Assembly (NCBI GenBank): GCA_030583725.1
Contig: CP129472.1
Span: 755,096-819,095 of the forward strand
Direction: 5' to 3'
From: a bacterium
Lineage (GTDB): Bacteria; Patescibacteriota; Microgenomatia; UBA8517
DNA: 64,000 nt
Shown here: piece after piece, positions 9,092-64,000 of the stretch
How the letters are laid out: every line of letters starts with the position of its first letter
Numbering within the stretch: the stretch's first letter is position 1
Notes under the pieces: generated by a model
Seen by the model: the letters and a program-made list of their open reading frames with translations, nothing else
The model's database searches: none
What the model was told of the DNA's origin: nothing
Position numbers and translations under genes: made by a program

Positions 9092-11413
9092 TCAGGCGTT
9101 TGGATCTTCAGTTAGAATAATTGTAGTGCTAAAACCTTCATTAGTAATTGTACCAGTGCTTGAGGTTGGTATGTATTTTGGACCGCCCGATGAAGCTTTA
9201 CGGACCCTTATGTATATGGATGTGTTAGAAACATAATTAAAGTCTTCAGTTGCAATACCTGAGGCATTGGTATCTTCATTCATAAGTTGTGTGTCGTCAA
9301 TTGATTTAAAGACTGCTGTTTGAGCATTTTCAATTGGGTTGTTGTTTTTGTCCACTACGGTGATAGTTATATCAACAGTGTTATTGATATTGACTGTGGC
9401 ACCAGCAGTTCTTATGCTTGGCGTGCTACCACCACCCGAAATATTAAGTGTAACTATTCCACTGGCGATGTTGACATAAATAGCCTCATTGCCGGTTGAA
9501 CCATTTGAGGAAGCAAAGCCGGTGAAACTATTACCAACAAAAGAAATAGTTGAAGCTGCACCGCTTACTTCGATAGCATGACCTGTCCCTGATGAAATAA
9601 AAGTACAGTTAGAAATATTATCCAGGTCACCTAAGGTGGCAGAGGTAATTTTGGAGTTGGAAAAGGTGCAGTCGTCAATGACGGCGGAGTTTTGCGTGAT
9701 GGTGGGGCAAGTGGTAAAAGTCATACCGTTAAAAGTGGTGACTGCTCTAAGTTGGACATCTCCTGCACCAATAATGGTGAGTCCTGAAAAGTCGTAGATG
9801 GCGCTAGCTGATGAGGAGGAGTGAATACGCCAGTGATATTTACTTTGGCTGGAAATCACTGATGAGCGGTGAATAACGGTGTCGGTAGCGCCTGCGTAAT
9901 AGGTAAAACCCACTGTGTTGTCAATACCATTGTAGTTGACTATTTTTTTAGAGTAGTTTTTTTGACTGGGAAATTCGATGGCGGTTGAGTCAAGGCTAAG
10001 ATAGAGAGGATTAGTTCCGCCGTCACCAAACTGAATGGCCTGCAAACAAAGCATTTGTGATGAACCTTGTAAAATAGAGGAGTAGCGATTTTTGTTATTG
10101 GCGGCAGATTTGACAATAGCAGGAATATCAATTGGTTCTGTGGAGTTGCCTCCTACTAGGGCAAATGTATCCATTGCCCAAGTAGGTCCAAAGGCTACTT
10201 GTTGAGTTAAGACACCAAGTCCTCCTGTCCATATGCCGTAACGTCTAATATCGGAATTGGTGATTGTGCTATTACTGTCAACCGTATCTGTGTTAGATGC
10301 ATTAATTACAATTGGTACAACAGATCCAGGTGGAGTTGCAACGTCAGAGCCGTGTACTTGCCAGATTTTATAGTTTTGTCCTGCAGTGGTACCTGATTTC
10401 ATACCAAACCATACTCCTCGTCCAGATCCTAGGGTAGACAAGCGCTGATTTTGTACAGGGGTTGCGTGCCTAAAGTGAGTTAGGATGTTTCTTTCCCCCA
10501 CATTATAGCGTGAAGCTGCAACGACTCCCTCTGCACCACTAACTTGATTGGCGGTTGCTGCATTGGTTACTCCAGAGAAAGACATAAACGAACCCTTGTC
10601 GTTGCCGATATCGACTACGGCAGTTGCGACTGTTGCATCGTTGGCGGTTTTACCTGCTAAGGTTGTACCCCAGTTGGTATCGGCGGTTGCAGCAATAGCA
10701 CTGTTACCGTCATATGCAATACCGAATGAGGGGGTGATATAAATTGAGTCATCGCTAGATGGATATGGGGGAATTACGGTCGCACCTCCAGATGGCTGAC
10801 GAATTTCAATAACCGCCTTGGTTCCACTACCCGAGACCATGGCGCTGGCTGTGTAGGCAGTGGTTACACCAGTGCTACGTTTAAAAAACCAACCTAATCC
10901 TAGACCTTCGGCTGAGCCATCAACTTTATTTTCTTCTTGTAAAACAGAGTTGACAAAGTGAATGGATGGGGCTGCGGCAGTACTGGTGACGAGAGTTAAA
11001 ACCAAAGAGTTGGAGTCGGAAGTGGTGAGAGTTGGTAGAGCAATGGCTGTACCTGTTGAAGTTGTATTGGTTTGAAGCATTGGACTACCACCTGTATAGG
11101 ATTGGTAGGCGTCTCTAATTGCGACCACGATACCAGAGTATGTTTCGTTGACGGTTGAAGTAAAAGCTACATCACCTTCACCGGATGCGGCGGCATATTT
11201 CCAGTAAACTGTGGTAGAACACGAGTTGTTACGGTTGAATAAGTTGTTCCATGACCCCACACCATTGGAACAACCCCAAGTAGGGGTACCAGTATCGCCC
11301 ACACAGATAGCGATGAGCAAGTCATTTTCCTCGTAAGCGCAGATGGGAATAGTTAAACCTGCATCTGTTGTGACACTTTCGTAGGCAAATGATGAGTCGC
11401 GTATTGCAGGCAT
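9092..11413 (-). CDS. Large (773 aa) Thr/Ser/Gly-rich beta-helix-like protein, paralog of the 4502-6826 gene
   Basis: See the 4502-6826 feature; the conserved C-terminal module and beta-helix repeats are shared, N-terminal halves have diverged. Confidence 0.55.
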   Translation of the reverse strand: MPAIRDSSFAYESVTTDAGLTIPICAYEENDLLIAICVGDTGTPTWGCSNGVGSWNNLFNRNNSCSTTVYWKYAAASGEGDVAFTSTVNETYSGIVVAIRDAYQSYTGGSPMLQTNTTSTGTAIALPTLTTSDSNSLVLTLVTSTAAAPSIHFVNSVLQEENKVDGSAEGLGLGWFFKRSTGVTTAYTASAMVSGSGTKAVIEIRQPSGGATVIPPYPSSDDSIYITPSFGIAYDGNSAIAATADTNWGTTLAGKTANDATVATAVVDIGNDKGSFMSFSGVTNAATANQVSGAEGVVAASRYNVGERNILTHFRHATPVQNQRLSTLGSGRGVWFGMKSGTTAGQNYKIWQVHGSDVATPPGSVVPIVINASNTDTVDSNSTITNSDIRRYGIWTGGLGVLTQQVAFGPTWAMDTFALVGGNSTEPIDIPAIVKSAANNKNRYSSILQGSSQMLCLQAIQFGDGGTNPLYLSLDSTAIEFPSQKNYSKKIVNYNGIDNTVGFTYYAGATDTVIHRSSVISSQSKYHWRIHSSSSASAIYDFSGLTIIGAGDVQLRAVTTFNGMTFTTCPTITQNSAVIDDCTFSNSKITSATLGDLDNISNCTFISSGTGHAIEVSGAASTISFVGNSFTGFASSNGSTGNEAIYVNIASGIVTLNISGGGSTPSIRTAGATVNINNTVDITITVVDKNNNPIENAQTAVFKSIDDTQLMNEDTNASGIATEDFNYVSNTSIYIRVRKASSGGPKYIPTSSTGTITNEGFSTTIILTEDPNA

Positions 11414-19541: not shown

Positions 19542-20855
19542 ATGAAAGCATCTGCACTTCTTGGTTTAAATTCTAGGTCTGTACTTTTTACTGGCAGATA
19601 TAACAGTAGAAAAGCAAAGAGAATTGCTGACTCAAAACTTGCAACTAATAGGGTACTAAGGTTGGCTAAAGTTGCAAAACCGACTGTTTATGCAAAATTT
19701 AACAATCAAAATAGAGTATATGAATTTGACTGGAACAGTTTGCCTGATAAATTTGCACTAAAACCTTCACGAGGTTTGGGCGGTGACGGAATAATCGTTA
19801 TCAAGAGAAGATTAAAAAATGGTAATTTTCTGACAACTAGCAGGGAAGTCAAAACAATTGAAGATTTAAAACTCCATACCTTGGATATCTTAGAAGGAGC
19901 CTATTCAATGGGCAATGAGCCTGACACTGCCTTTGTTCAGGAGTTTGTGGGTAGGCATTCTGCATTTAAAAAAATAGCGTATAGAGGAACACCTGATATC
20001 AGGGTTATTGTTTTTAATATGATTCCTGTAATGGCGATGTTAAGGCTTCCCACTAAAGAGTCCGGAGGAAGGGCAAATTTGCATCAGGGGGCTCTGGGGG
20101 TCGGAGTTGACATCGCGTCAGGTATTACTACAAAAGCAATTGTTAATAATAGAGAAATAATTTACAAGCCAAACAGTAATAAAAAATTAAGAGGAATCAA
20201 GGTCCCATATTGGAATAAGATATTGGATACTGCAGTTAGGGCACAGGTTGCCTCAGGCTTGGGTTATGCTGGTGTTGATATTGTACTTCACCCAGAAAAA
20301 GGCCCAATGGTTATTGAATTAAATGCTCAGCCAGGGCTATCTATCCAGCTTGCTAATATGGAGGGGTTAAAAAAGCGTTTGGATAGAGTTGATGATATAA
20401 CTGTATTATCAGCAGAACACGGTGTAAAAATAGCAAAAGCATTGTTTGCTAGCAAGTTTGTTAAAAGAGTTAAAAATATTGATGATGTAGATACAATTAA
20501 GGCAGTCGAGGAAATAAAATTACTTGATGTAAATGGCAGGGGAATTAAAATCTTAGCAAAAATAGATACGGGTGCGTGGTCATCAGCAATTGACATAAGT
20601 TTGGCTAGACGTTTAGGATTACTTAAGAAAAACAGAATTATTGCAACAAGAAAGAAATTAAGTGCTTTAGGCGAAGATGAAAGGCCTGTTATAGCTTTGA
20701 CCTTTTACCTTGCTGGACGTAAAATAGCAACAAAAGTTACGGTAGCAGACAGAAAAATCTTAAGATATCAGGTTTTAATTGGTAGAACAGACCTGCAAGG
20801 CTTTTTAGTAAGCCCTGATATTGAACGTGATAAACTAGTAAAGGCAAAGTGGTAA
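19542..20855 (+). CDS. Fusion protein: RimK-related (alpha-L-glutamate-ligase-like) ATP-grasp domain plus C-terminal retropepsin-like aspartic peptidase domain (DTGA)
   Basis: ATP-grasp core motifs (KPSRGLGGDGI, ...GRANLHQGALGVGVD..., ELNAQPGLS); C-terminal ILAKIDTGAWSSAID with Asp-Thr-Gly-Ala catalytic signature. Confidence 0.65.
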   Translation: MKASALLGLNSRSVLFTGRYNSRKAKRIADSKLATNRVLRLAKVAKPTVYAKFNNQNRVYEFDWNSLPDKFALKPSRGLGGDGIIVIKRRLKNGNFLTTSREVKTIEDLKLHTLDILEGAYSMGNEPDTAFVQEFVGRHSAFKKIAYRGTPDIRVIVFNMIPVMAMLRLPTKESGGRANLHQGALGVGVDIASGITTKAIVNNREIIYKPNSNKKLRGIKVPYWNKILDTAVRAQVASGLGYAGVDIVLHPEKGPMVIELNAQPGLSIQLANMEGLKKRLDRVDDITVLSAEHGVKIAKALFASKFVKRVKNIDDVDTIKAVEEIKLLDVNGRGIKILAKIDTGAWSSAIDISLARRLGLLKKNRIIATRKKLSALGEDERPVIALTFYLAGRKIATKVTVADRKILRYQVLIGRTDLQGFLVSPDIERDKLVKAKW

Positions 20856-28017: not shown

Positions 28018-28061
28018 ATTTAAAAAAATCGCCTCCTTTCACCCTTAACATTAGAATGATT

Positions 28062-28183
28062 ATAACATAACAATGTTGAAGTTCATAACATAACAATGTT
28101 GAAGTTCATAACATAACAATGTTGAGGTTCATAACATAACAATGTTGAAGTTCATAACATAACAATGTTGAAGTTCATAACAT
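28062..28183. repeat. Tandem direct repeat, 23-bp unit ATAACATAACAATGTTGAAGTTC x5 plus partial sixth copy
   Basis: Copies start at 28062, 28085, 28108, 28131, 28154 (one G variant), partial at 28177; lies immediately upstream of rpsU. Confidence 0.9.
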
Positions 28184-28189
28184 TTAATT

Positions 28190-28762
28190 TTAGATATTCG
28201 TAGGTGGTACTATATTGGAGTGGTTGTTTTTGTGGTTACTCCCGACTGTTAGATATATAGACAAAATAACTATTAAAACAAAAAGTCCAAACAAATAAAG
28301 AGCATATTCTGCAAAAAACCGATTTTGGTATTCATCTTCTTGCTTCTCAGTTTGTGTTTCAGCAATTGGTTCGATGCTAGGTGTTGGATTTTTTGTTACT
28401 TGAGGAGTTGCACTTACAGTTGCAATGGGTGTTTGGCTGGGTTTTGTTGTTGATGATGGTGATATTGTTGCCTTTGCTGTAGTTGTTGGTGAGCTACAAA
28501 CACAATCTGTTTTTTCTGCACAAATTGGATTTCTACAAAAACCTTCATGACAAAAGAGGTTGGCCTGACAGTTATAGTTACTACCACAAGTACCACCACA
28601 AAAATTTGGTTCACCTTGGGCCCTTTTGTTTAGATTGAAGTTTACATTTAAGGCTGTCCAAACAAAAAGTGGGAGTGCAATTACTGTTGCAAAAAACAGC
28701 CCAGTCAAAAGAGAATTTTTTGCAGTAGGTGGGAGGTTTTTATAGTTAAATGAAGTGGACAT
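28190..28762 (-). CDS. Membrane-anchored protein with a compact Cys-rich module (10 Cys in ~45 aa), Thr/Pro-rich linker and a C-terminal TM helix
   Basis: NFCGGTCGSNYNCQANLFCHEGFCRNPICAEKTDCVC; N-terminal signal-anchor and C-terminal hydrophobic helix. Confidence 0.4.
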   Translation of the reverse strand: MSTSFNYKNLPPTAKNSLLTGLFFATVIALPLFVWTALNVNFNLNKRAQGEPNFCGGTCGSNYNCQANLFCHEGFCRNPICAEKTDCVCSSPTTTAKATISPSSTTKPSQTPIATVSATPQVTKNPTPSIEPIAETQTEKQEDEYQNRFFAEYALYLFGLFVLIVILSIYLTVGSNHKNNHSNIVPPTNI

Positions 28763-29842: not shown

Positions 29843-30073
29843 TTTGAAGCTTCAAAAAAAGCGTAGTTCTGGATCAGGAATGTCTTTTAAAAAATTAAGT
29901 TATGCTTTTGCAATTACTGCATATTTAATTTTTTAAATCTAACTACATTCCTGACCCGTAGATCAATTACCGGATTTTCCTCTTTTTTTTCTTGTTTTTA
30001 TCTTTCCCCTTGTCTTTCTTGTTTTCAAAAGTGTTCATGGAATAAGTCTCCTTTCTATTTAGTTTTGGAGAAA

Positions 30074-30340
30074 TTAGTTCATGTCAGCCACAAGTTCTTG
30101 GATGACTTTGTGGTCGATGCCCATCCGGGTGAGCGCGTCTTTGAGATGACGCTGGAGTCTGGTTACATAATAACCTGCTACACCTTGTGGCGTGCATTTT
30201 GTAGCGGGTTCATTGTACAGATTCCATTGGCTCTGCAGGTCATTCCGAATGTAGGTACGGAATGTTGTGGTAGCACCATCTGTTGTTGCCTCGATCCTGA
30301 CTTCACCTGCACCAGACTGAACTATCACTTTGTCACTCAT
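30074..30340 (-). CDS. Hypothetical protein (88 aa) in a locally GC-enriched segment, good SD (aaggagacaac) upstream
   Basis: ORF with ~48% GC versus ~33% window background; no recognisable domain. Confidence 0.35.
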   Translation of the reverse strand: MSDKVIVQSGAGEVRIEATTDGATTTFRTYIRNDLQSQWNLYNEPATKCTPQGVAGYYVTRLQRHLKDALTRMGIDHKVIQELVADMN

Positions 30341-30408
30341 TTTGTTGTCTCCTTGTCAAAGAATTTTCTCATAGCTGAATGCTATGGGATGGTTGAGTAT
30401 AACAATTT

Positions 30409-30780
30409 TTAAGTAAATGTCAAAAGTTTTCCAGTTAGTTCCTCACCGTTTAATTCTTTCCATTTTTCAAGGAGTTTATCTTTTACAAATTTTTTATATT
30501 TTTCATCAGTCTTGCTATATTTTCTTTCCCAAGCTTTTTCTGATGCGTATAGAAAAGATTCAGACTCAGCTGTTTGAGGATTGTCTAAAATACTTTCAGT
30601 ACTTCCAAGGTATTTATCTGGGTCTTTTCCATCAAAAGTAAAAGAAATTACTACAGTTAGTTCCTCAAATATTTGATTACTCGAAGGGACAACGATATAT
30701 TGGAATGAAGCACTATCCAATATTTCAGAACGGGCAGTTGTAGCTCTCTCACCAATTGCCACAATTATATTGTAACACAT
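30409..30780 (-). CDS. Hypothetical protein (123 aa)
   Basis: ORF only; strong hairpin immediately 5' of its start. Confidence 0.3.
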   Translation of the reverse strand: MCYNIIVAIGERATTARSEILDSASFQYIVVPSSNQIFEELTVVISFTFDGKDPDKYLGSTESILDNPQTAESESFLYASEKAWERKYSKTDEKYKKFVKDKLLEKWKELNGEELTGKLLTFT

Positions 30781-30846
30781 GACAGAAGTCGGAGAAGGGG
30801 GATTTTTTGGAATCCTTTTTATTCTCTGACTTCTGTCAAGTTGCGG

Positions 30847-31029
30847 TTAGCAGCCGCGTTCTTGTGAACGGGCAATGTCGATTGCAACGAGGTATTCATC
30901 GTTGCTACCGTGCTCATTGCGCACTTTTGTTTCCAGTTCATCAAGGCTGATCGCTTCTGCAACTAATTTTTTCCCAACCTTAAGCCTGTAACAAGACTGG
31001 AACTTGTGAACTCTTATATCAGCGGACAT
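30847..31029 (-). CDS. Hypothetical small protein (60 aa), GC-enriched
   Basis: ORF only. Confidence 0.25.
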   Translation of the reverse strand: MSADIRVHKFQSCYRLKVGKKLVAEAISLDELETKVRNEHGSNDEYLVAIDIARSQERGC

Positions 31030-31146
31030 TTTAAACTCCTTTTGTTGGAATACTCAAAGCAATTTTGAGTTAGGGATATTATACTATAGGTAAATGACCA
31101 TTTGCAAGTTTAACTGGGATTTAGTAGTTGGGTGTTTTTCCTTCTT

Positions 31147-31342
31147 TGCACCAATCTATGATTTAGCTCGAAAATATTTTATATCAAATTTTTAAGCGAG
31201 CAACAAGGGAGGGGTTAAAGGGGAAGGAATTGTTGCGAAGCTTCGTGTTTCCTCGCTCAGCCACTTCGTGGCTTCGCTAACACACCTGCAAAGCTCGAAG
31301 CTTTGCGCTCACCCCACTTCGTGGGGTTCGCTAACCCAATTG
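31147..31342. repeat. IR-A left copy: 196-bp GC-rich sequence that recurs as a perfect inverted copy at 38571-38766; outer terminus TGCA
   Basis: Base-by-base reverse-complement match over all 196 bp; contains internal direct repeats (ccacttcgtgg..ttcgctaac x2) and palindromes (cgaagcttcg). Confidence 0.95.
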
Positions 31343-31800
31343 AAAGGAAAAGGGGTTTTGTAGTCAGTCGCTTGCGAGCGCCTGACGAAAGTGCCCTTGC
31401 GGTATACCGTAAGCACCTTTACAAAATCCGCAATCGTGTCGTATTATAGGGCATATTGCGGAGTTGCGGTACTGCGGTTGCCGTTGCGGTCACCGCAAGT
31501 CCACATATGAACACAAAAACTAATCCAAACCTATTTTTAAAAGATTTCTAATGTATCATTTCAGTCACAATCTGTCCAACAGGGACAGCTAAACCAAGTG
31601 CTGAAAACAGAACAAGGTGCTTGCGCACAGCACTTGGTTAGAAGACAGGACAACAGAACCATTGCTCCTGAAATATTCCCTTAACAGGGAATCCTGCCCA
31701 GCACAAAGCACCCCAAAGCTACAGGGGTGATGGCTTACGCCATGTGCTAGGCAGGAGAACAAAAACACACCAGCACATACTATTTTTGGTGTTATAATCT
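31343..31800. other. ORF-free, GC-enriched, hairpin-dense stretch with clustered TTGCGG/CCGCAA repeats; candidate structured ncRNA, iteron/centromere-like array or recombinase-binding region
   Basis: No ORF >=60 aa on either strand; TTGCGG repeats at ~31397-31490; perfect 10-bp stem ccaagtgctg...cagcacttgg at 31607-31650; several further 5-7 bp stems. Confidence 0.5.
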
Positions 31801-31807
31801 TAATGTT

Positions 31808-32689
31808 ATGTTTTTACAGAAATCAAAGGAGAATGCATTTATACTAGCAGTTATTGCTGCTTTTTGTGGTGGTTCAATAGTTGTTGCGGCTAAAATTGCA
31901 CTAGAAGTTTTTCAACCATTTACAATAGTTTTTATTAGATTTCTATCTGCTACATTATTTTTAATTCCATTAATTGTTAGGGCAAAAGAATTCAAAGTTT
32001 CTACAATCAAAAAGTTTATACCAATTGGAATAGTTGGAGCATTAAATCCAATACTTTTATTTATAGCTTTACAATACACCAAGGCTTCAGTTTCACCATT
32101 AATATATGCAAGTGTTCCTGCAATGACCGCTGTTTATGTTTATTTGGTTAGAAAAGAAAAAATAAGTAAACAAAGTATATTTGGAATAATTATTGGTTTC
32201 ATAGGAGTTGCACTTATTATTCTTCTCCCACTTATTGAAAAGGGTGTTCCACTAGTTGCATTGAAAGGAAATATCTTAATTTTTGGGGCAGCCATAGCCT
32301 TTATGTATTACGGAATAATGAGCAAGAAACATCAGAATGAGATGAACGCATCTCCAATTGTATTAACCTTTTATTTTGCTTTGGTAACTTTATTTTTGAG
32401 TATACCGTTTGCAATTAATGAAGTTAGAAACGGATTTCTTGGAACGGTTGAGTTAAAACATATATTGGCTGGGATTTATACAGGAGTTGTAGGAACAGGA
32501 ATATTTTATCTTGCTTACCAATATGCTTTAAAGCTTGGATCAGAAATTGCAGCAAATTTATTTACATATTTACAACCAATAGCAACAATTTTACTTGCCT
32601 CACTCTTTTTAGGAGAGAGAATAACGATACCTTTTGTTATCGGTGGTTTGTTGGCAGTAATTGGAGCCAAGATTGCTTCGAAAAAATAA
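31808..32689 (+). CDS. EamA/DMT-superfamily transporter (10 TM)
   Basis: Two ~140-aa repeated 5-TM halves, typical EamA organisation. Confidence 0.75.
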   Translation: MFLQKSKENAFILAVIAAFCGGSIVVAAKIALEVFQPFTIVFIRFLSATLFLIPLIVRAKEFKVSTIKKFIPIGIVGALNPILLFIALQYTKASVSPLIYASVPAMTAVYVYLVRKEKISKQSIFGIIIGFIGVALIILLPLIEKGVPLVALKGNILIFGAAIAFMYYGIMSKKHQNEMNASPIVLTFYFALVTLFLSIPFAINEVRNGFLGTVELKHILAGIYTGVVGTGIFYLAYQYALKLGSEIAANLFTYLQPIATILLASLFLGERITIPFVIGGLLAVIGAKIASKK

Positions 32690-33497
32690 TATATATTGCT
32701 TCTTAATTTCCACAGGTCTAATATTTAAATATACCCTCATGGAAGAAGATGTTTTAAGTCAGATTAAAAGTGAGAATGCAAAGAAACAAACAAGAAGTAG
32801 CAGTGGTAAGTTTGTTGCAAAAGATGATCCAACAAAACTTCCTCCAATCTCAGTATCAGTTAATAATCCAACTTCAGTAAATACAACAACTCCACCTGAT
32901 CTAGTTAATCTAAAAGTAACTAATCCACTTGTATATATTAAATACTGGTGGAAAAGAATAATGGCAAATGAAGGTATTGAAGTTAAGTTTAAAGCAAAAC
33001 CACTAACTGTGTTTGGTGTTGCCTTAATTGGATTTACACTTCTCTTTGGTATTGGTGGAGTTGTTCTACCTATTTTCTTTCCTTGGATGAAGTTTAATAA
33101 TTCTATAATCTCAACTCCAACAAATACCCCAACTCCAGAAATTTTAAAAGATACTGCACTTAAAGGAATACTAACAAAAACAAATACTAATCCTGTTAAA
33201 TTCTATTTAATCACTACCTCAACAGAAGCAGTAACTTTAGAAATACCAGTTGGTTTTAATTTAAATACTCTAGTTGGAAAAAGGATCTTAGCTGTAGGTA
33301 CATATGATTCAAAAAACAAAATACTTGAAGTTGAAGATATACAAGATTTAGAAGTACTTTCAACAACACCAGTACCAATACCAACAACAACTCCAACACC
33401 AAAACCAACTGAAACTCCTATTCCTACAATTGCTCCAACCATGGTTCCAACTGTAGAACCAACGATTGCACCAAGTGAAGATCCAATAAGTTTATAA
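32661..33497 (+). CDS. Membrane protein with a C-terminal Pro/Thr-rich repeat tail
   Basis: Central TM helix (PLTVFGVALIGFTLLFGIGGVVLPIFF), C-terminal TTPVPIPTTTPTPKPTETPIPTIAPT...; start uncertain (overlaps EamA end). Confidence 0.4.
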   Translation: MEPRLLRKNNIYCFLISTGLIFKYTLMEEDVLSQIKSENAKKQTRSSSGKFVAKDDPTKLPPISVSVNNPTSVNTTTPPDLVNLKVTNPLVYIKYWWKRIMANEGIEVKFKAKPLTVFGVALIGFTLLFGIGGVVLPIFFPWMKFNNSIISTPTNTPTPEILKDTALKGILTKTNTNPVKFYLITTSTEAVTLEIPVGFNLNTLVGKRILAVGTYDSKNKILEVEDIQDLEVLSTTPVPIPTTTPTPKPTETPIPTIAPTMVPTVEPTIAPSEDPISL

Positions 33498-33534
33498 ACT
33501 TGCGTTTTTAAAGTCTCTATCCTATAATATACGT

Positions 33535-34095
33535 ATGACAGATATTTTAACTTTCTCGCCTGGTCCAAAGGAGCTAATTGAAAAAGCTTCAAATAGACTG
33601 ACACAAGAAAATGCTGATAAATTTGCCGTAGACAAACCGTTAAATGATGATTTTTTGATATCTTTTACGGCAAGGACACTTCTTGAATTTGACGATGGTG
33701 ATCTTGAACTGAGGATATCCCTTACACAATACAAAAAAACTGGTGAATTAACACAAGAAATATTACTTCAGGAGCCACATGGTAAAAAGTTATATAGATT
33801 AGACATTAGCTCAAGTCCAAAAAAAGACGAAGAAAAATCAAGAATGACATCGTTAGCTAATGAAATGAGCGATAAAAAAGGGACTTCTGCTCTTTCAAAA
33901 ATGCTTTCAGATACTTTTGGCACATCTGGTAATACAACTGTTTCGAGGATGGACAATTGGGCAGAAACTAACATTACTACAGATAGTGCAAGACAATTAA
34001 TAGAAATTGGTACACCTAAGCTACCTGAAGATGCTCGAATAACATTGTTGGAATTTAGACAAAAAGTAGGCCAAAGTTTTCCACTTCTAAAGTGA
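33535..34095 (+). CDS. Hypothetical protein (186 aa)
   Basis: ORF only. Confidence 0.35.
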   Translation: MTDILTFSPGPKELIEKASNRLTQENADKFAVDKPLNDDFLISFTARTLLEFDDGDLELRISLTQYKKTGELTQEILLQEPHGKKLYRLDISSSPKKDEEKSRMTSLANEMSDKKGTSALSKMLSDTFGTSGNTTVSRMDNWAETNITTDSARQLIEIGTPKLPEDARITLLEFRQKVGQSFPLLK

Positions 34096-34098
34096 CAT

Positions 34099-34674
34099 TT
34101 ACACTGCAGAATTTAGAAGTTGATATACAGCCTGTCTTAATTCTTTATTTCCATACCCACTAACTGAATTTTCAGGTTTAGATTCTATTGCATCTGCAAA
34201 CTTCATCATCTCATCAAGCTTGTTGTGTTTTTGTGCAAGTCTTAATTGTCTAACCGTTGCAAATACATGATTCCACTTAACATTTGATGTATTGATTGAC
34301 TTTGTAATTCCAAGTTCTTTTGATTTTCCAAAAGCTATTGGATGATCTTTATCTGACGCTGTTAAATCAAGTGCTGATTCAACTGATTCATGTTCTAAAG
34401 CAAAATCAACTAAATCATCCGGGACTACATCAGTGCTTATCATTGGTAGCTTGTATTTGACAGCAATAATTGCTCCACAACCTTTAAGACCTTTACTGTA
34501 TGTTGTCCAACCTGAAACTATTGGAAGTCTATGGAATCTACCTTTTATGTGTTCGTATGAACCAACAAATGCATCTTTTCTTCTTTGTTCCACTCTTTGT
34601 TCTAAATCATCAGGAAGTCTTAAGATTTCATCTATTTTTTGAATATTCATTATTTCACGAGTAGTACTTTCCAT
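34099..34674 (-). CDS. Hypothetical protein (191 aa), translationally coupled downstream of the PfkB kinase
   Basis: ORF; 1-nt spacing to the upstream kinase gene. Confidence 0.35.
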   Translation of the reverse strand: MESTTREIMNIQKIDEILRLPDDLEQRVEQRRKDAFVGSYEHIKGRFHRLPIVSGWTTYSKGLKGCGAIIAVKYKLPMISTDVVPDDLVDFALEHESVESALDLTASDKDHPIAFGKSKELGITKSINTSNVKWNHVFATVRQLRLAQKHNKLDEMMKFADAIESKPENSVSGYGNKELRQAVYQLLNSAV

Positions 34675-34675
34675 G

Positions 34676-35560
34676 TTAAATTAGTTTTTTAATTTCTTCT
34701 ATCGAATTATCAACCCCTTGATATTTAACTGATTCAGTTGCAATTTGAAGTGCTTTTTTAATGCTTTGGTCAAGATCATTTGTTTTTATATATTCAGAAA
34801 GGAATACTCCTCTGAATATATCTCCTGATCCTGTAGCATCAACTGCGGTTATAGTTTCTGTTGGATAGTGCTTTGGTTCTTTATCAAAAACAACACAGCC
34901 ATCAGTATCAAGAGTAATTATTGCAATACCATCTGTGAAGCTTTTTAATTTAGTAACAGCTTCTAATGCTTCATAAATAGTTGTTATTTTTATATCTAAA
35001 AGTAATTCTGCTTCTTGTCTATTAGGAACTACAAAATCTACAGTTTTAAGTTTTTCTTTATCAAACTCTTTTTGTTGATTTGGAAAATCTAAAAATACTT
35101 TTACATTATCTTTGTTTGCTCTTTCTATCATTTTATATATTTGATCTAACTTCATACTTGTTGCCATATATAAATATTCATAGCCTGAAAGGTTTTGAAG
35201 TTTTGATTCATCAAAAAAGTTAATTGCGTTAAGATTAAGAACAATTGCAGACTGACCATCTTTATCAGTTAATACTAAAACTTCTGCAGTTGGAGATTCA
35301 GAAGTAGTGTATACAAGTTTGGTATCAATACCATATTTTTCTAAATCTGAAATTGCTTGTTTTCCATTGTTATCATTTCCAACAACACCAAACATTGAAA
35401 CAGAATTGCTAGAAGCCAAAACTCTACCTGCATTTATTATCTTGCTACTAGTTAATGTGTTTACAGAGTTAACAAAGCCAACCTCATTTGCGTGAGGTAC
35501 ACTATCCATTAAATATTGTTTCTCTGCACAAATTTCTCCTGCTAGTAATATCTTTGGCAT
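34676..35560 (-). CDS. PfkB-family carbohydrate/nucleoside kinase (ribokinase-like)
   Basis: C-terminal VDATGSGDIFRGVFL matches the PfkB DTxGAGD signature; N-terminal GG-containing substrate motif. Confidence 0.7.
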   Translation of the reverse strand: MPKILLAGEICAEKQYLMDSVPHANEVGFVNSVNTLTSSKIINAGRVLASSNSVSMFGVVGNDNNGKQAISDLEKYGIDTKLVYTTSESPTAEVLVLTDKDGQSAIVLNLNAINFFDESKLQNLSGYEYLYMATSMKLDQIYKMIERANKDNVKVFLDFPNQQKEFDKEKLKTVDFVVPNRQEAELLLDIKITTIYEALEAVTKLKSFTDGIAIITLDTDGCVVFDKEPKHYPTETITAVDATGSGDIFRGVFLSEYIKTNDLDQSIKKALQIATESVKYQGVDNSIEEIKKLI

Positions 35561-35637
35561 ATGATGTCTGAATTATAGCAAAACAAACCTTTATGAACTA
35601 TAATGGGTTCACTGCCCTTAACTAAGGCGGTTTTTTT

Positions 35638-38007
35638 ATGGAAACAATACTTAAATATAAAATCAAAACAGATTTCAGAAATCAAAAATCTGTAAAGACA
35701 GATAAAAGTAATTTTTTAGGTAGAGAAAAATTGATTAGAAGGTTTTCTAATATTGCTGAGAATAGAGTTTCTTCAACTGTATTGATTGGAGGTGCTAGAG
35801 GCATTGGTAAGACATCGTTTGTCAGAGAGGCTTTGTCTATGAACAACTCTTCAATTCCTAAAATTGTTATTCAAATTAGTTTGGCAGAAGTTGATCCAGA
35901 AGATAAAGATATTAGAAAAACAATTTTGAGCACATTAATTCGTGGATTATATTTTGAATTGAAAAATAAAAATAATGGAGATATTTTAAAGGATCCAGAG
36001 CTGTCAGATTCAATTGAGGATTTGTACGAAAAAACATATTATTCAGAGTTTGAGAAAAAAGACTTTGCTGAATTGGTTGCAAGTGTTAAGCAAAGTCAAG
36101 AACAAAAGAGTATTGATGAGAAGAAGTATCATTTTGAATTTGGTAGTGCGATAAAAACTTTGTTAAAGGCAACAATTGGAGCTTTGACAATAACTCCATT
36201 TCTTACAACAATATTAGTTTTGCAAATACCATTATGGGCGGCGATTACACTTTTCTTTTTAGGTCTTGCGTTCTTATTCTTAGTTTTATCAGTAGATGTG
36301 AACATTGTGCATTCAACAATATCAACTGAAGGAATAATGGAAAAGGTTGATTCAAAGTCACAAAAAACCGGTATTGCCAAGTTAGATATATCATCAAATA
36401 CTTTAGAGATTGGTCTAAGACAAATATTACTTAATTTAAGTGATAAAAAGCAGAAAGTTATATTTGTTATTGACGAGTTAGACAAGTTAGATGGCGGCGA
36501 TAGTCCAGATGTGAAACTTGAGGATCACTACATATATAAAGTAATCAAACCTCTAAAAAATCTATTTACCTTGTCAGGTGCTGTATTTGTGTTTATTGTA
36601 AGTAATAGCTTTTACTATGCGGTTACAAAAAAGAAAAAAATTGATCCGTATTCGACATTTCATACATTATTCACAGATCGAATATTTCTAGACCCGTTGT
36701 ATTACAAAGATATCGAACGAATATTGGATAGCTACGTTGATGGTGAAATTGATAAAAGTTATAAAGACGATTATTTCAAATTCAGATACTATGTTAGTTG
36801 GTTAGCTAAAAATCATATTTTTGATCTTCATAATATTGTTGAAAATTTTATTGAATATGAAAATAAAAACACAACAGTACATTTATATAAAGGTAATAGT
36901 GAGGCAAATGGAAGCATAGAAGAAAGATGGGAAGTTGCTTCAGCATTGCAAGTTTTCTTATCTGCTACATTTGATGAAAAATCGTATCCTGCCGATAGTG
37001 AGATGAACGAGCAGTTGTACTTAACTTTACGTCAAGTTGCTGAAAAATTATATTCCGATTTTTACATTGAAGTTAGAGACAATAAATTTATAGATATACT
37101 ATCTGAGAGCGAACAGAAGCAATTAAGACTTGATGTTCTTGATATCAAATCTAAAGAAGATATATCAGGTTCAATAGAAGATATGCTTTTGAGAATGGAA
37201 AGAGTGGATAAATATTGCTTGTTAGTATCAGGTCAGGAAGACGAAGATACTGTCGATGAGTCTAATCCAGAAGGTGAAAAGGAGAAGAAAAGCTATATTT
37301 ATTTTTCGCTGGTTGATAATGACAAATTTCCAGTTATTGATGAGGTTAGAAAAACTAACGCAGTCACGACATACGAGGAGGAATTTATTAAAAAATACAA
37401 TTTACTAGGTTCATCTAAATTAAATCTAGAAAATATTGATCTTCAGACATTTTCTGTTTACGATGGAGAATATAAAAAATTCAGCCAACTTGCGACTAAG
37501 ATTATCAATAATAAACCTAGAAATGAACGGAAAAGCCTAGTCCTAGAGTACTCAAAACGTATTGAGGAAATACAAAACGCTTTATACGGCAACTCTATTG
37601 ACGATTTATTGAGCAAACTAATGAAAGAGGACAGTGGGCTTACAAAATGGGATATCGGATCTGGCAAAACTGGAGTACCACTCTGGGATGCTGATGCTCC
37701 ATTGTCAAAGTTTTATCAAGAATTGCATAATAATACTGATCTGGAATATGAATCTGACTATGTTATCATTCATGACGAAAGTCAAAATAGATACACAGTT
37801 CTTGGGTTTGGTTTGGATACAAAAATTCAAGACATATACAGTTCAGTAAATCGTTTTTATAGATTCAGAAGAACAGAAACAAGAGTTATAAATTTAACTG
37901 GCGTAAATACAAATAATAAAAATATTTGGAAAGTCGTAAATTCTAAAGATGATCTATCGCATCTAAAGGAATATGACAGAGAACTCAGAAGCAGATTTAA
38001 TCTTTAA
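35638..38007 (+). CDS. KAP-family-like P-loop NTPase (PifA-like) with two TM helices inserted between Walker A and Walker B, long C-terminal region
   Basis: Walker A LIGGARGIGKTSFV, inserted hydrophobic hairpin (ITPFLTTILVLQIPLWAAITLFFLGLAFLFLVL), Walker B VIFVIDELDKLD; 789 aa. Confidence 0.6.
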   Translation: METILKYKIKTDFRNQKSVKTDKSNFLGREKLIRRFSNIAENRVSSTVLIGGARGIGKTSFVREALSMNNSSIPKIVIQISLAEVDPEDKDIRKTILSTLIRGLYFELKNKNNGDILKDPELSDSIEDLYEKTYYSEFEKKDFAELVASVKQSQEQKSIDEKKYHFEFGSAIKTLLKATIGALTITPFLTTILVLQIPLWAAITLFFLGLAFLFLVLSVDVNIVHSTISTEGIMEKVDSKSQKTGIAKLDISSNTLEIGLRQILLNLSDKKQKVIFVIDELDKLDGGDSPDVKLEDHYIYKVIKPLKNLFTLSGAVFVFIVSNSFYYAVTKKKKIDPYSTFHTLFTDRIFLDPLYYKDIERILDSYVDGEIDKSYKDDYFKFRYYVSWLAKNHIFDLHNIVENFIEYENKNTTVHLYKGNSEANGSIEERWEVASALQVFLSATFDEKSYPADSEMNEQLYLTLRQVAEKLYSDFYIEVRDNKFIDILSESEQKQLRLDVLDIKSKEDISGSIEDMLLRMERVDKYCLLVSGQEDEDTVDESNPEGEKEKKSYIYFSLVDNDKFPVIDEVRKTNAVTTYEEEFIKKYNLLGSSKLNLENIDLQTFSVYDGEYKKFSQLATKIINNKPRNERKSLVLEYSKRIEEIQNALYGNSIDDLLSKLMKEDSGLTKWDIGSGKTGVPLWDADAPLSKFYQELHNNTDLEYESDYVIIHDESQNRYTVLGFGLDTKIQDIYSSVNRFYRFRRTETRVINLTGVNTNNKNIWKVVNSKDDLSHLKEYDRELRSRFNL

Positions 38008-38048
38008 CCTTTATTGAAAATTAGATATATAAGGTGTAAAAATAATTA

Positions 38049-38567
38049 ATGTCGAATAACAAATTTGTTTTAGTCCCAGTTGATCTTCTTAAAAATTTAA
38101 GAGAATTATCCAAAGGCACAGAATATGAAGACGAAGTCAAAAAAGTTTTAGACTCAAGGGAAGCCATAGAAAATCATGATATTACAAAATTACCAAAGTC
38201 TGCAGTAGTTAAAAGAGTGATAGATGGAGACACTGTAGAGTTATTTAACGGTACTGTTCTTCGCTACACAGCAATTACAGCACCAGAAGATGGAGAATCA
38301 TTTGCAGAAGAAGCTACTAAGTTAAACCAAGAATTAGTTGAAGGCAAAGAAATTAAACTTGAATATGACAACTACACCTCTGACAAATTTGGAAGAATTC
38401 TTGCATATCCAATCATAGACAACAAAAATATTTGTATTGAACTTGTTTCAAAAGGTATGGCTGAATTAGTTATTTACCAAAAAAGAAAGCCATTTATTCA
38501 TCAAGTTCAATTATTAGAAGCACAAGAACAAGCAAAGAAAAACAAACAAGGAATTTGGAAGAACTGA
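38049..38567 (+). CDS. Staphylococcal-nuclease-like (thermonuclease/SNase) domain protein
   Basis: VIDGDTVEL...RYTAITAPE...GRILAY... matches SNase catalytic core (DGDT / R..IDaPE); 172 aa. Confidence 0.7.
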   Translation: MSNNKFVLVPVDLLKNLRELSKGTEYEDEVKKVLDSREAIENHDITKLPKSAVVKRVIDGDTVELFNGTVLRYTAITAPEDGESFAEEATKLNQELVEGKEIKLEYDNYTSDKFGRILAYPIIDNKNICIELVSKGMAELVIYQKRKPFIHQVQLLEAQEQAKKNKQGIWKN

Positions 38568-38570
38568 ACA

Positions 38571-38766
38571 CAATTGGGTTAGCGAACCCCACGAAGTGGG
38601 GTGAGCGCAAAGCTTCGAGCTTTGCAGGTGTGTTAGCGAAGCCACGAAGTGGCTGAGCGAGGAAACACGAAGCTTCGCAACAATTCCTTCCCCTTTAACC
38701 CCTCCCTTGTTGCTCGCTTAAAAATTTGATATAAAATATTTTCGAGCTAAATCATAGATTGGTGCA
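38571..38766. repeat. IR-A right copy (perfect reverse complement of 31147-31342); begins 3 nt after the SNase stop codon; outer terminus ...TGCA
   Basis: 196/196 identity to the left copy in inverted orientation. Confidence 0.95.
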
Positions 38767-38827
38767 TACCCCCGACCTGTCGGGGTCGAGCGAAGCGAAG
38801 ACCACGACTTTTGCCCATCCCCTCGGA
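38763..38827. repeat. IR-B left copy: 65-bp GC-rich sequence, perfect inverted partner at 40363-40427; shares the TGCA terminus with IR-A right copy (4-nt overlap)
   Basis: tgcatacccccgacctgtcggggtcgagcgaagcgaagaccacgacttttgcccatcccctcgga is the reverse complement of 40363-40427. Confidence 0.95.
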
Positions 38828-38912
38828 CAAAACAAAACATCAAAACAAACACAAATTGATATTATTTGATATCTTGATACGTATTATTTACGGGCGTATA
38901 AATAATATTGGT

Positions 38913-40526
38913 ATGACCAATATTGTAAATGATCCTTCTCAAGATAGATATTTTATATACGCTCGCAAGTCTACGGATGTGGAAGATAAACAGGTTCAAT
39001 CAATTGATGGACAACTTGAAGAGTTAAGGTTACTTGCCAAGAGAGAAAATCTGATTGTTGTAGATGAACTTATTGAAAAACAATCAGCTAAAATTCCCGG
39101 AAGACCTGTGTTCAATAAAATGCTTGATAGGATTGAGAAAGGTCAGGCTTCAGGGATTCTCTCTTGGCATCCAGATAGACTTGCTCGTAATTCTGTTGAT
39201 GGAGGAAAAATAATCTTTTTTGTAGATACAGGAAAGATATCTGCCCTCAAATTTAACACCTTTTGGTTTGAACCCACTCCTCAGGGTAAATTTATGTTGT
39301 CAATTTCGTTTGGACAATCGAAATATTATGTGGATTCTTTAAGTGAAAATACTCGTCGTGGGTTACACCAAAAAGCTAGAAATGGATATTTCCCAGGAGT
39401 AGCGCCTTACGGTTATTTAAATGATTCTCGCAATAAAACGATTGTTGTAAATAAAAAAGTTGCTCCTGTTATTGCTAAGGCTTTCGAAATGTATTCTGAG
39501 GGAAATATCCAATTAAGTGATGTTGGTAGCTTTTTGGAAACGCAAAAGGTGTTAAATACACAAGGAAGGAGAATTAGAGACGATCGTGTTAGAAAGATAC
39601 TAAAACAACCATTTTATTGTGGCTTGTTCGAGTATTGTGGAGAAGTGTATGAGGGCAGACATGATCCAATAATTTCAAAGAAACTTTTTGATAAAGTCCA
39701 AGATGTTCTAAAAATGAGAAATAAACAATGGAGCAAAGCTGTTGTTGAAAGAGTTCATAAACCTTATCTTGGACTTTTTAGGTGTGGTGAGTGTGGTATG
39801 GCTATAACAGGAGATATCAAAAATAAGTTTTATCCAATAAAAAATCGTCACGCTAGTTATTGTTATTATCGTTGTACTAAAAAGAATAAAAACATCTCCT
39901 GTAGCCAACCACACATCACTGAAAGTGATTTGGATAAATTACTCACCACACATATCAAAAAGTATTCTTTGAAAAAGATTTACGCAAATCAGATGCTTTC
40001 TAAACTAAAACAAGAGGAATCTGATATTGCTAAATCTTGCCTTGATGCTATTAGTATCAAGAGAAAGGATTCGGAACAAATAGACATTAAAATAAAATTA
40101 CTTCTTGAAAGCTATTTAGATCAGATCATTGATAAGCAGACTTTTCAAGAAAGTAAGCTGGATTTAATGTCTAAAAAGAAAACAATAGAGGAGCAAATCC
40201 TTTCTCTTAAAAGGAATCAAAATAATTGGATCGAACCTTTTAAAAACTGGATAATTGAAGCTAGTAGAGTAGATCAAATAATATCAACTAATGACAAAGA
40301 TGCCAAAAAGGTACTCGCCGAAAAAATTTTCGGCTCGAACTTGTTAATTGAAAACAAAAAACTCCGAGGGGATGGGCAAAAGTCGTGGTCTTCGCTTCGC
40401 TCGACCCCGACAGGTCGGGGGTATGCAAGGGTGGATAGAATCGAACTATCATTACCTGTTTTGGAGACAGGAGGCCTACCATTGACCGACACCCTTATAT
40501 ATTTGGAATTATATCAATTATGGTGA
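38913..40526 (+). CDS. Large serine recombinase (resolvase catalytic domain, recombinase domain, zinc-ribbon, coiled-coil tail)
   Basis: N-terminal YARKSTDVEDKQ (Y-x-R-x-S-T-x-x-Q nucleophile motif), zinc ribbon CGECG...YYRCTKK; ATG at 38913 preferred over the TTG at 38811 that lies inside IR-B; the 3' ~55 codons are encoded by IR-B' and the antisense of tRNA-Trp. Confidence 0.85.
   Translation: MTNIVNDPSQDRYFIYARKSTDVEDKQVQSIDGQLEELRLLAKRENLIVVDELIEKQSAKIPGRPVFNKMLDRIEKGQASGILSWHPDRLARNSVDGGKIIFFVDTGKISALKFNTFWFEPTPQGKFMLSISFGQSKYYVDSLSENTRRGLHQKARNGYFPGVAPYGYLNDSRNKTIVVNKKVAPVIAKAFEMYSEGNIQLSDVGSFLETQKVLNTQGRRIRDDRVRKILKQPFYCGLFEYCGEVYEGRHDPIISKKLFDKVQDVLKMRNKQWSKAVVERVHKPYLGLFRCGECGMAITGDIKNKFYPIKNRHASYCYYRCTKKNKNISCSQPHITESDLDKLLTTHIKKYSLKKIYANQMLSKLKQEESDIAKSCLDAISIKRKDSEQIDIKIKLLLESYLDQIIDKQTFQESKLDLMSKKKTIEEQILSLKRNQNNWIEPFKNWIIEASRVDQIISTNDKDAKKVLAEKIFGSNLLIENKKLRGDGQKSWSSLRSTPTGRGYARVDRIELSLPVLETGGLPLTDTLIYLELYQLW
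40363..40427. repeat. IR-B right copy, terminus ...TGCA overlapping the 3' end of tRNA-Trp
   Basis: 65/65 reverse-complement identity with 38763-38827. Confidence 0.95.
40426..40496 (-). tRNA. tRNA-Trp (anticodon CCA)
   Basis: Hand-folded cloverleaf: acceptor AAGGGTG/CACCCTT, anticodon stem CCTGT/ACAGG with loop CTCCAAA, T-arm GATAG-TTCGATT-CTATC, discriminator G; 71 nt. Confidence 0.75.
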
Positions 40527-63370: not shown

Positions 63371-63850
63371 ATGGGAAATTCACAAGCACTTCAAATGTCA
63401 GTCCACGCAGCAGTCTCTGCAACAAGTTTAATCGCTCTAATCTGTGATAACACACTAAGTAACGAAAAATACAAAAAAGTTAAAAAAACTGTTTTCAAAC
63501 TCCACAAAGATGTATTGGAATATAACAAAAAACTTCTAATTTTAGAAACAGACTATCAAAAGAATGAAGCGGATAAAATTAAAAAAGAAAGTTTAAAAAA
63601 AGCAATTAAAATATCACTTGAAGTTAGAAAAATAGCTCAGGCAATTGAAAAAGTTGGTTTCAGATTAACTAAAATCGGTGACAAAAATATGCATGCAGAT
63701 GCAAGAACTGCAATTCATCTTGCCCATGCGTCCTCAAAATCAGCACTTGAAAATATAAAAGTTAATAAGCAAAGCTTGACCAAATTGGGAATTGGTAAGC
63801 AAAGCTTGACCAAATTGGGAATTGGTAAGCAAAGCTTGGCAAAATTATAA
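63371..63850 (+). CDS. Hypothetical alpha-helical protein with three C-terminal 10-aa tandem repeats (KQSLTKLGIG); possibly cyclodeaminase/FTCD_C-like (weak)
   Basis: ORF; 30-bp in-frame DNA tandem repeat at 63769-63850. Confidence 0.3.
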   Translation: MGNSQALQMSVHAAVSATSLIALICDNTLSNEKYKKVKKTVFKLHKDVLEYNKKLLILETDYQKNEADKIKKESLKKAIKISLEVRKIAQAIEKVGFRLTKIGDKNMHADARTAIHLAHASSKSALENIKVNKQSLTKLGIGKQSLTKLGIGKQSLAKL

Positions 63851-64000
63851 ATTTTGTAAAAAAGGGTTAATTAAAATTTAACAATTGTAAAAAAGTGATC
63901 ACTGGTTTATAATTGCACCAAGCACACAGATTTAAGCTTCCTGAAACTTACTAAATCTGTGGGAGGATAAGGAAGCAAATTATCAAATTATGGTAAAAAT

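Follow-up and report, generated by a model that had tools for sequence, protein, structure and literature searches.

What kind of element places a large serine recombinase (LSR) gene against a tRNA gene and encloses it, together with a neighbouring cargo segment, in two different pairs of perfect inverted repeats? The question is raised by a stretch of 64,000 nucleotides from a bacterium of the Patescibacteriota (Microgenomatia; UBA8517; GenBank contig CP129472.1, positions 755,096 to 819,095), hereafter the window. A 65-nt inverted repeat surrounds the LSR gene, which converges on a minus-strand tRNA-Trp(cca), and a 196-nt inverted repeat bounds a cargo segment of ~7.2 kb; the arms of both pairs are 100% complementary (Table 1). 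No other long inverted repeats and no further copies of either arm were found in the rest of the window. Two perfect repeats of such length within 64 kb cannot be a matter of chance. An earlier note on this DNA, made from the sequence alone, had described a composite of this kind built around the recombinase at the tRNA and had known of no element family with this architecture. Its components are real, the same layout recurs in relatives, and our full-text literature searches likewise found no described family of this form. We consider it probable, if well short of certain, that positions 31147-40427 represent one integrated mobile element that is mobilised by its own LSR and carries its attachment site (attP) twice.

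On the recombinase strand, the locus reads flank-c'-A'-cargo-A-c-B-LSR-B'-c'-tRNA(rc), where A and A' are the 196-nt arms, B and B' the 65-nt arms, and c a core equal to N72-N73-C74 of the neighbouring tRNA. In the window the core is TGCA, i.e., T72-G73-C74-A of tRNA-Trp, and is present at all three junctions, including 40424-40427 at the tRNA. As read from the sequence, the right 65-nt arm closes with N73 and N72 of tRNA-Trp, and B is the same sequence as the DNA 3' of the tRNA on the tRNA strand. A core of 3–5 nt was likewise common to the three junctions in at least 19 related loci (numbered with the prefix L), e.g., CACC in L043, CTC in L016, CAC in L045, and TAC in L059. The earlier note had rightly pointed to a short core at every junction but had seen in TGCA a special palindrome suited to the enzyme; since the left arm in relatives starts with an N72-N73-CCA copy of whichever tRNA is adjacent (e.g., CACCA, CTCCA, or TACCA), the palindromy of TGCA is incidental.

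The earlier note had called the enzyme an LSR, and profile matches to Resolvase (PF00239, E = 8.6e-21), Recombinase (PF07508, E = 1.6e-13), and Zn_ribbon_recom (PF13408, E = 4.9e-10) bear this out. The catalytic motifs Y16-A-R18-K-S20-T and D88-R-L-A-R92 and the cysteines C291, C294, C321, and C330 are invariant in an alignment of 21 homologues, and an alignment with PDB entry 4kis pairs residues 209-435 with the C-terminal domain of A118 integrase. Judged by these features, we are dealing with a genuine large serine recombinase. Its open reading frame (ORF) continues through B' into the antisense strand of the tRNA gene over the last ~55 codons, a read-through that the earlier note had missed.

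The architecture is not peculiar to the window. Relatives of the recombinase numbered 7875 among the 8000 candidates scored in a protein search, and a search of species-representative genomes returned at least 588 loci, of which the 80 listed were taken for locus analysis. Most of these 80 loci were labelled as Patescibacteria lineages, while some bins carry other labels, which we took as given; named relatives included Daviesbacteria and Curtissbacteria. In L001 and L002, the nearest relatives among the contigs compared, the recombinase proteins were 89 and 71% identical to that of the window, and their genes were enclosed by perfect repeats of 66 and 69 nt with the same 1532-nt spacer and abutted tRNA-Trp and tRNA-Tyr, respectively. 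An exact inverted repeat of 49–219 nt (median 88) surrounded the LSR gene in 45 of the 50 evaluable loci and an imperfect one in 2 more. In 40 loci, the right arm ended 2–5 nt (mostly 4) inside a minus-strand tRNA gene, and 15 tRNA identities were represented (Trp, Tyr, Thr, Val, Cys, Gly, Glu, Leu, Arg, Lys, Phe, Asn, Ser, Ile, and Met), with the repeat identity ending between N71 and N72. A, the 100–317 nt upstream of the left arm, had an inverted copy A' 1.1–9 kb away in at least 20 loci; 12 of the A/A' pairs were 100% identical and one was 99.6% identical. The layout is the rule for this LSR clade beside tRNAs of any identity, and the elements make up a large family of small elements, apparently undescribed so far, in the ultra-small bacteria of the candidate phyla radiation (CPR).

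In at least 10 further loci, the contig ended 125–127 or 139–141 nt upstream of the core, i.e., at k-1 for k = 127 or 141, as expected of a de Bruijn assembler that meets in A a repeat exceeding k in length. Short-read assemblies do break near these genes where an inverted repeat is longer than the k-mer, and the earlier note had named an assembly artefact, such as a collapsed repeat, or a dispersed repeat family unrelated to the recombinase as what could overturn its description. We give these explanations, a chimeric repeat included, virtually no weight: the same architecture and tRNA register recur in dozens of independent assemblies made with different assemblers, and the repeat copies that we found in related genomes always flank an LSR gene. 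A second-element variant was also encountered in L007, where an A-c-flank junction (~20150-20460) lies 8.7 kb past the tRNA of the first element, showing that elements can sit close together.

The B repeat also recurs beside different tRNAs. A 38-nt core of B was identical beside tRNA-Trp (the window and L001) and tRNA-Val (L093), and the same 38 nt occurred in metagenome contigs beside tRNA-Gln, tRNA-Cys, tRNA-Thr (exact), and tRNA-Tyr, the copy at tRNA-Tyr having one mismatch beyond the 38-mer; the recombinases of loci sharing this core were only ~70% identical. Among all matches to the B core, the neighbour of B was either a tRNA or A. A 29-mer of the 196-nt repeat had no match in viral contigs, and the LSR family was rare in the viral-contig collection (2 close matches); the enzyme is therefore not a typical phage integrase.

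The orientation of the cores bears on how the locus arose. The outer two cores are direct repeats, while the cores flanking each repeat pair are inverted and equal to the tRNA end; because the outer cores are direct, 31147-40427 is best taken as one single insertion. The distal flank starts with C(C)A, followed in at least 5 loci by a hairpin and a T-run, and joining the outer cores would restore the tRNA (...N72-N73-C(C)A) followed by an A-rich trailer. We read the hairpin and T-run as the tRNA's own terminator, whose displacement into the far flank would place the composite insertion between the tRNA and its terminator. This junction logic sets the element boundary at 31147, and the extension to ~30060 suggested in the earlier note finds no support, given that the ORFs at 30074-31029 have no repeat, no homologue at related loci, and no family match. 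Furthermore, the excision junction B'-c'-A' is the exact reverse complement of the internal A-c-B, so that the attachment site is held twice in inverted orientation, once split by integration and once intact; we read the internal A-c-B as a second, inverted attP.

The same observations bear on whether the LSR is instead a resident, Hin/Gin-like invertase that flips its own segment and/or the cargo to vary expression. The recombinase gene does lie within an inverted-repeat segment, as hin does, and recombination between the arms would keep them alike; moreover, both orientations of the LSR segment exist among relatives, being flipped in L093 (tRNA-Val(+)-c-B-LSR(+)-B'-c'-A', where the tail of the ORF is encoded by A') and in L021 (tRNA-Arg(+)-B-LSR(+)). 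Near-identical B arms at six tRNAs, at least 15 tRNA identities in the family, and the displaced terminator in the far flank nevertheless speak for insertion. The LSR converges on the directly abutting tRNA in 40 loci and is flipped in 2, and since contigs read through arms shorter than k, the populations are not visibly mixed; frequent inversion is not indicated. The promoter-like site of the LSR lies inside the segment, so a flip alters no obvious promoter-gene link, and the enzyme is an LSR rather than a small invertase. We regard a resident switch as improbable.

The sequences flanking the core suggest how the enzyme could recognise its target. In 38 loci aligned at the core, the end of A showed the consensus ...TTtttnt.aAAAta.GTTCgAgC...gTtGTAaAa...|c and adjoined B in all 38, and the tRNA side showed ...GGTTCGAnTCC...|c. 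TCGA was located 21 nt from N72 in 19 of the 23 occurrences scored in A, versus 17 nt in tRNA T-loops (24 occurrences); the corresponding motifs in the window are TTCGAGC at 38741-38747 (A) and the T-loop at 40439-40445 (tRNA). We infer that A ends in a mimic of the tRNA T-loop (GTTCGAGC), set 4 bp farther away from the crossover than the T-loop itself. Rutherford et al. located the ZD motif of serine integrases at positions 16–24 of attP half-sites and found it 5 bp nearer the centre in attB than in attP (PMC3783163). The 4-bp offset would approximately fit this rule, with A as a P-type half-site and the tRNA T-arm as a B-type half-site. On this basis, we read the A arm as the putative P-type half of attP and the 3' part of tRNA-Trp as the putative B-type half of attB. 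A conserved GTAnA before the core was also considered as a -10 box and was excluded because the sixth position is not conserved; a generic promoter scan gave no excess over shuffled sequence.

According to the explanation that we favour, the LSR would recombine attP (A-c-B) with attB (the tRNA 3' end plus trailer), with the crossover at N72-N73 or N73-C74, so that the native terminator would end up separated from its tRNA by the element. A would supply a mimic of the universal T-loop, and the spacing of this mimic, 4 bp beyond that of the real T-loop, would correspond to the P-type versus B-type geometry by which serine integrases tell attP from attB; with such a mimic, any tRNA gene could be used by the enzyme. 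B would take the place of the tRNA trailer; it carries a conserved hairpin and, in Saccharibacteria-type arms, a terminator of canonical form. The element would carry attP twice in inverted orientation, one copy having been divided by integration, with A' now at the distal end and B' beside the tRNA, and the other left intact between the cargo and the LSR. This doubling would create the two inverted-repeat pairs and, with them, one compartment for the LSR and another for the cargo. Within the element, gene conversion would then keep the arms identical, rare exchange between the B arms would flip the LSR compartment, and cargo would turn over between the A arms. Our leading guess for the role of the second attP is symmetric transcriptional insulation of each compartment combined with isomerisation of the free form.

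Several points weigh against this explanation. The predicted empty site, GGTGTTTTTCCTTCTT-TGCA-AGGGTGGATAG (31146 joined to 40428), had no match as an exact 30-mer in the metagenome collection, which may not include the source strain, and for this genome neither an empty site nor an excised circle nor an isomer at the read level came to light. To our knowledge, canonical serine integrases do not recombine attP with attP, attL, or attR, which leaves an intact internal attP without a known enzymatic role. The orientation ratio of ~40:2 departs from the 50:50 expected if either attP copy could integrate. The A and B half-sites are dissimilar, which is unusual for a dimer-bound site, and their comparison as mutual inverted repeats revealed no convincing similarity. 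The 4-bp offset is near but unequal to the published 5 bp, and the crossover is narrowed only to N72-N73 or N73-C74. Among the 50 evaluable loci, 3 had no detectable left B copy, as judged by inspection for L005 and L036 and by the repeat scan for L064. Finally, the exchange of cargo could simply be old divergence.

Cargo exchange is illustrated by L043 and L049, which occupy the same tRNA-Gly site with partly syntenic flanks and carry unrelated cargo. It raises the alternative that two modules stand in tandem at one core, i.e., a mini-element B-LSR-B' and a non-autonomous cassette A'-cargo-A moved in trans by the LSR, both through circles with palindromic sites (B'-c-B and A-c-A') and with arms perfected by template switching. 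Such modules would explain why each part is exactly bounded by its own perfect repeat with only the core in common and why cargo differs between homologous platforms at one site; symmetric sites would also fit a dimeric recombinase, and a palindrome would account for perfect arms with sharp edges. However, the cores around each module are inverted, whereas conservative insertion of a circle would give direct cores, and a plain flank was never seen in place of the A-end consensus beside B. A palindromic B'-c-B junction was absent among all matches to the B core, and the P-type spacing in A would be wrong for the half-site of a target. In addition, the divergence of A follows the LSR and not the cargo: A and the LSR were 91% (aligned part) and 89% identical between the window and L001 and 84 and 78% identical between L043 and L049, respectively. 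Because A tracks the recombinase while the cargo is unrelated, A would belong to the recombinase platform. We therefore think the two-module arrangement unlikely, and the earlier note's view of the 196-nt pair as the bounds of a separate segment gives way to one in which A always accompanies B and diverges with the LSR, and the whole unit is framed by direct outer cores. A further scenario, in which an inversion involving a second tRNA and the internal attP brought in the cargo, was rejected since it predicts a tRNA to the left of B, which was never seen.

We return to the favoured explanation of a single element with a doubled attP, in which the arms would be homogenised by gene conversion. 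Arms are identical within a locus and A differs by 5–16% between relatives, which indicates concerted evolution. The earlier note had attributed the repeat identity to recent duplication or to ongoing recombination and gene conversion, and ongoing homogenisation is supported: the arms are 100% identical in the locus, yet over the aligned part A shares only 91% identity with its counterpart in the closest relative. Two elements in one metagenome-assembled genome (L066 and L079) were only ~71% alike, and homogenisation therefore acts within the element. The inner arm edges shift (116, 136, and 147 nt) from one close relative to another, with the sum of arm and spacer staying at ~1700 nt, which resembles gene conversion at repeat edges. 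A larger rearrangement with its breakpoint near the element is hinted at by L072 (1-1621) and L074 (14632-16252), two genomes with 95% DNA identity between their recombinase genes, in which a syntenic block is inverted and lies to either side of the element.

The arms themselves are structured. In B, a GC-rich hairpin of 9 bp occupies a constant codon position, with the invariant W492 as its anchor; among 39 distinct TGG(W)-anchored sequences, all 9 positions were paired in 22 and 8 of 9 in 7. Many substitutions are compensatory, and the peptide encoded there changes with them (WAALRAA, WSALRAD, WDALRAS, and WVLLRKT), and nucleic-acid constraint therefore overrides protein sequence at this hairpin. 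Saccharibacteria-type B arms have a canonical stem and T6 terminator just past the tRNA. In A, several hairpins with GAA loops are present, as is a covarying stem whose conserved loop is rich in C/T, and A-c-B folds somewhat better than shuffled sequence (z ~ -2.5, either strand). B may thus combine an att half-site with a replacement terminator or insulator. These structures also permit another account, namely that the inner copies are terminator or insulator blocks derived from an ancestral inverted duplication and kept by selection and gene conversion, with only A' and B' acting as att arms. The covarying hairpin of B, the Saccharibacteria-type terminator that faces the LSR segment from both sides, the inner edges that shift at constant total length like chloroplast inverted-repeat boundaries, and the LSR rules that leave an internal attP without a partner are all in its favour. 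Insulation alone, however, would not need what is seen in nearly every locus, where the inner copy keeps the core and both half-site motifs exactly to N72, and the account overlaps the favoured explanation rather than excluding it. We judge it quite improbable.

Table 1. Coordinates of the element, its arms and cores, and the adjoining tRNA gene in the 64-kb window
Feature	Position	Strand	Remarks
Distal core c' (TGCA)	31147..31150		Putative element/native-flank boundary, attR-type: A half-site plus tRNA-trailer side
A' arm, distal 196-nt repeat copy including core	31147..31342	-	100% complementary to 38571-38766
GC-rich non-coding stretch, 465 nt	31343..31807		Inside cargo beside A'; rich in GCGGT-like motifs; no Rfam match
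EamA-family transporter	31808..32689	+	PF00892, E = 4.5e-42
ORF without family match	32661..33497	+	No Pfam, PHROGs or PADLOC match
ORF without family match	33535..34095	+	No Pfam, PHROGs or PADLOC match
ORF without family match	34099..34674	-	No Pfam, PHROGs or PADLOC match
PfkB-family sugar kinase	34676..35560	-	PF00294, E = 7.8e-40
P-loop NTPase, KAP / AAA_16 type, 789 aa	35638..38007	+	AAA_16 E = 6e-08; KAP_NTPase E = 3.8e-06
Staphylococcal-nuclease-like gene, 172 aa	38049..38567	+	Pfam SNase E = 4.2e-18; stops 3 nt before A
A arm, proximal copy	38571..38766	+	Putative P-type half of attP; T-loop mimic TTCGAGC, several hairpins, conserved C/T-rich loop
Internal core c (TGCA)	38763..38766		Common to A and B repeats
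B arm, left copy: core and hairpins	38763..38827	+	100% complementary to 40363-40427
Predicted LSR promoter	38874..38902	+	TTGATA, 17 nt, TATAAA; ends 10 nt before ATG; read from sequence
LSR gene, 537 aa	38913..40526	+	ATG 38913, stop 40526, Pfam domains
B' arm, right copy	40363..40427	-	Within 3' end of LSR ORF, abuts tRNA
tRNA-Trp(cca)	40426..40496	-	N72-N73 = 40427-40426; T-loop TTCGATT = reverse complement of 40439-40445; 3' part putative B-type half of attB

No transposase was found by Pfam in the cargo of the window, and an all-against-all BLAST of 83 cargo ORFs revealed no shared directionality factor or replication gene. No cargo gene was common to the loci in general; the exception was the nuclease gene within the Microgenomates subfamily, which stands close upstream of A in the window, L001 (3515-4039), L007 (8986-9537), L095 (544-1062; also L096), and L105 (735-1247). 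Its divergence is in step with that of the recombinase, and the protein may assist the element as an accessory factor instead of being free cargo. The 278-aa cargo ORF was also present in the related element L105. Cargo elsewhere included alanine racemase, GMP synthase, prolyl-tRNA synthetase with an amino-acid kinase, GNAT acetyltransferase, a radical-SAM (viperin-like) protein, and a helicase-nuclease matching defence-system profiles. Part of the GC-rich stretch beside A' was 78% identical to DNA at another A'-type junction (L007 20597-20712). In the window, only tRNAs reached the Rfam gathering scores, and a search around A' and the GC-rich spacer gave no match even at E = 1; A and B are thus not known RNA families.

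The predicted promoter of the LSR gene lies inside the repeat-bounded segment and is conserved in L001 and L002, and the block may function as such. This conserved site between the left arm and the ATG excluded an mRNA panhandle formed by the B arms. Upstream of it, three direct copies of TTGATAT/C (38860-38881), also conserved in L001 and L002, could be an operator. Recombinase proteins in databases show C-terminal tails such as G[IF]EP that correspond to the translated antisense T-arm of a tRNA, and these may be either a systematic annotation artefact or a real tail. Seven recombinase relatives (P0002, P0026, P0046, P0048, P0051, P0055, and P0057) were ~900 aa long, nearly twice the usual length.

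Among described systems, the nearest concepts are tycheposons and classical tRNA islands. Genomic islands that integrate at tRNA genes, including the tycheposons of Prochlorococcus, are likewise small cargo elements at a tRNA with the integrase beside it and variable adaptive cargo, and a minority of tycheposons use LSRs (10.1101/2020.12.28.424599). Classical tRNA islands use, according to PMC4383910, tyrosine integrases and a direct repeat of a tRNA 3' fragment. That repeat comprises at least roughly 15 nt, and neither it nor the tyrosine integrase is present here, where only 3–5 nt are shared (N72-N73-C74(-C-A)), the long repeats are inverted, and the enzyme is an LSR. With LSR prophages and elements such as phiC31, Bxb1, A118/LI, and SPbeta, the element shares the enzyme class and domain set, the short core at attL and attR, the integrase gene next to the predicted attP, and a candidate attP motif displaced outward relative to attB (PMC3783163). 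Those elements target one protein-coding gene through imperfect half-sites of ~25 bp, whereas here the target would be the 3' end of any tRNA gene and the arms span 49–317 nt (B as exact repeats; A 91–100% identical and mostly perfect). The apparently intact inverted attP copy kept inside, together with the lack of a directionality-factor candidate shared among the cargos, is a further difference.

Other systems resemble the locus in single respects. Hin, Gin, Cin, and Pin also have a serine recombinase gene within or beside an inverted-repeat-bounded segment; these are small invertases (~190 aa, C-terminal helix-turn-helix) with ~26-bp imperfect sites and an enhancer, fixed in place with mixed orientations, unlike the 537-aa LSR, the perfect 49–219-nt arms, and the dominant orientation described here. 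The integrated layout would imply a circle with two identical inverted repeats, as in the yeast 2-micron plasmid (Flp/FRT) and chloroplast genomes, where identity is kept by recombination and orientation isomers exist. Both have two long identical inverted repeats with a recombinase target and two unique segments. Flp, however, is a tyrosine recombinase on a replicating plasmid, used for copy-number amplification, whereas the present element has an LSR, is integrated, shows one dominant orientation, and revealed no replication gene or free form. SSV-type archaeal integrases are tyrosine recombinases with attP inside the int gene, which is split in two by integration. Here, too, the crossover would lie inside the recombinase ORF and integration would change the encoded protein, but only in its C-terminal tail (antisense tRNA when integrated; A'-encoded in L093), with the domains left intact. 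Integrons similarly combine a recombinase platform with an adjacent slot for exchangeable, promoter-less-looking cargo and hairpin-rich sites; they differ in having the tyrosine recombinase IntI, attI, one attC per cassette, and arrays in direct order, versus an LSR, a single slot, and platform-specific inverted arms that follow the recombinase lineage rather than the cargo. Transposons and insertion sequences with terminal inverted repeats need a transposase (e.g., DDE or HUH) and direct target-site duplications; here no transposase was found in the cargo, and the cores around each repeat pair are inverted. The combination of putative any-tRNA targeting by a T-loop mimic, long inverted and mostly perfect arms, a second and seemingly intact attP, and a predicted crossover within the ORF differs from every described kind that we found.

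It is conceivable, and we put it forward only tentatively, that these elements constitute an undescribed, CPR-wide class of serine-integrase elements, in which attP carries a T-loop mimic that opens essentially any tRNA gene to one enzyme family and is present twice as long inverted repeats, which set up a recombinase and a cargo compartment, the cargo slot serving as an exchangeable cassette. On this reading, the internal attP that is retained may help to control direction, e.g., as a built-in partner for excision with no separate directionality factor, or it may allow a strand acquired through transformation to fold, as single-stranded DNA, into a duplex attP. CPR bacteria (Patescibacteria) make up a large share of bacterial diversity, and few mobile elements have been described for them; as the elements carry both defence-like and core-like genes, they could provide a principal route for the movement of genes among these reduced genomes. 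If the recognition model is true, an integrase reading the conserved T-loop and acceptor end would have a universal landing site, which would be of interest for genome engineering, and the intact inverted attP would raise the question of how serine-integrase directionality is controlled without a known directionality factor. The repeats also explain many contig breaks in CPR assemblies and would explain recombinase ORFs annotated with perhaps spurious antisense-tRNA tails.

Outside the element, several minor features were noted in the window. Just beyond the distal core, 30074-31029 contains three minus-strand ORFs (88, 123, and 60 aa) in GC-enriched DNA, which had no Pfam or PHROGs match, no repeat, and no homologue at related loci; a strong promoter-like site (31107-31078) and a 20-nt hairpin (30777-30841) were present in the same region. 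Positions 28039-28222 hold ~7 tandem copies of a 23-nt unit, ATAACATAACAATGTTGAAGTTC, which overlap the start of a minus-strand 190-aa ORF (28190-28762), and a 30-nt unit, TAAGCAAAGCTTGACCAAATTGGGAATTGG, is repeated three times in tandem at 63766-63855, two of the copies being identical. The minus-strand ORFs at 128-2566, 4502-6826, and 9092-11413 (812, 774, and 773 aa, respectively) had no Pfam match and form GC-rich patches (~43–48% versus a background GC of ~32%); they may encode foreign or paralogous large proteins.

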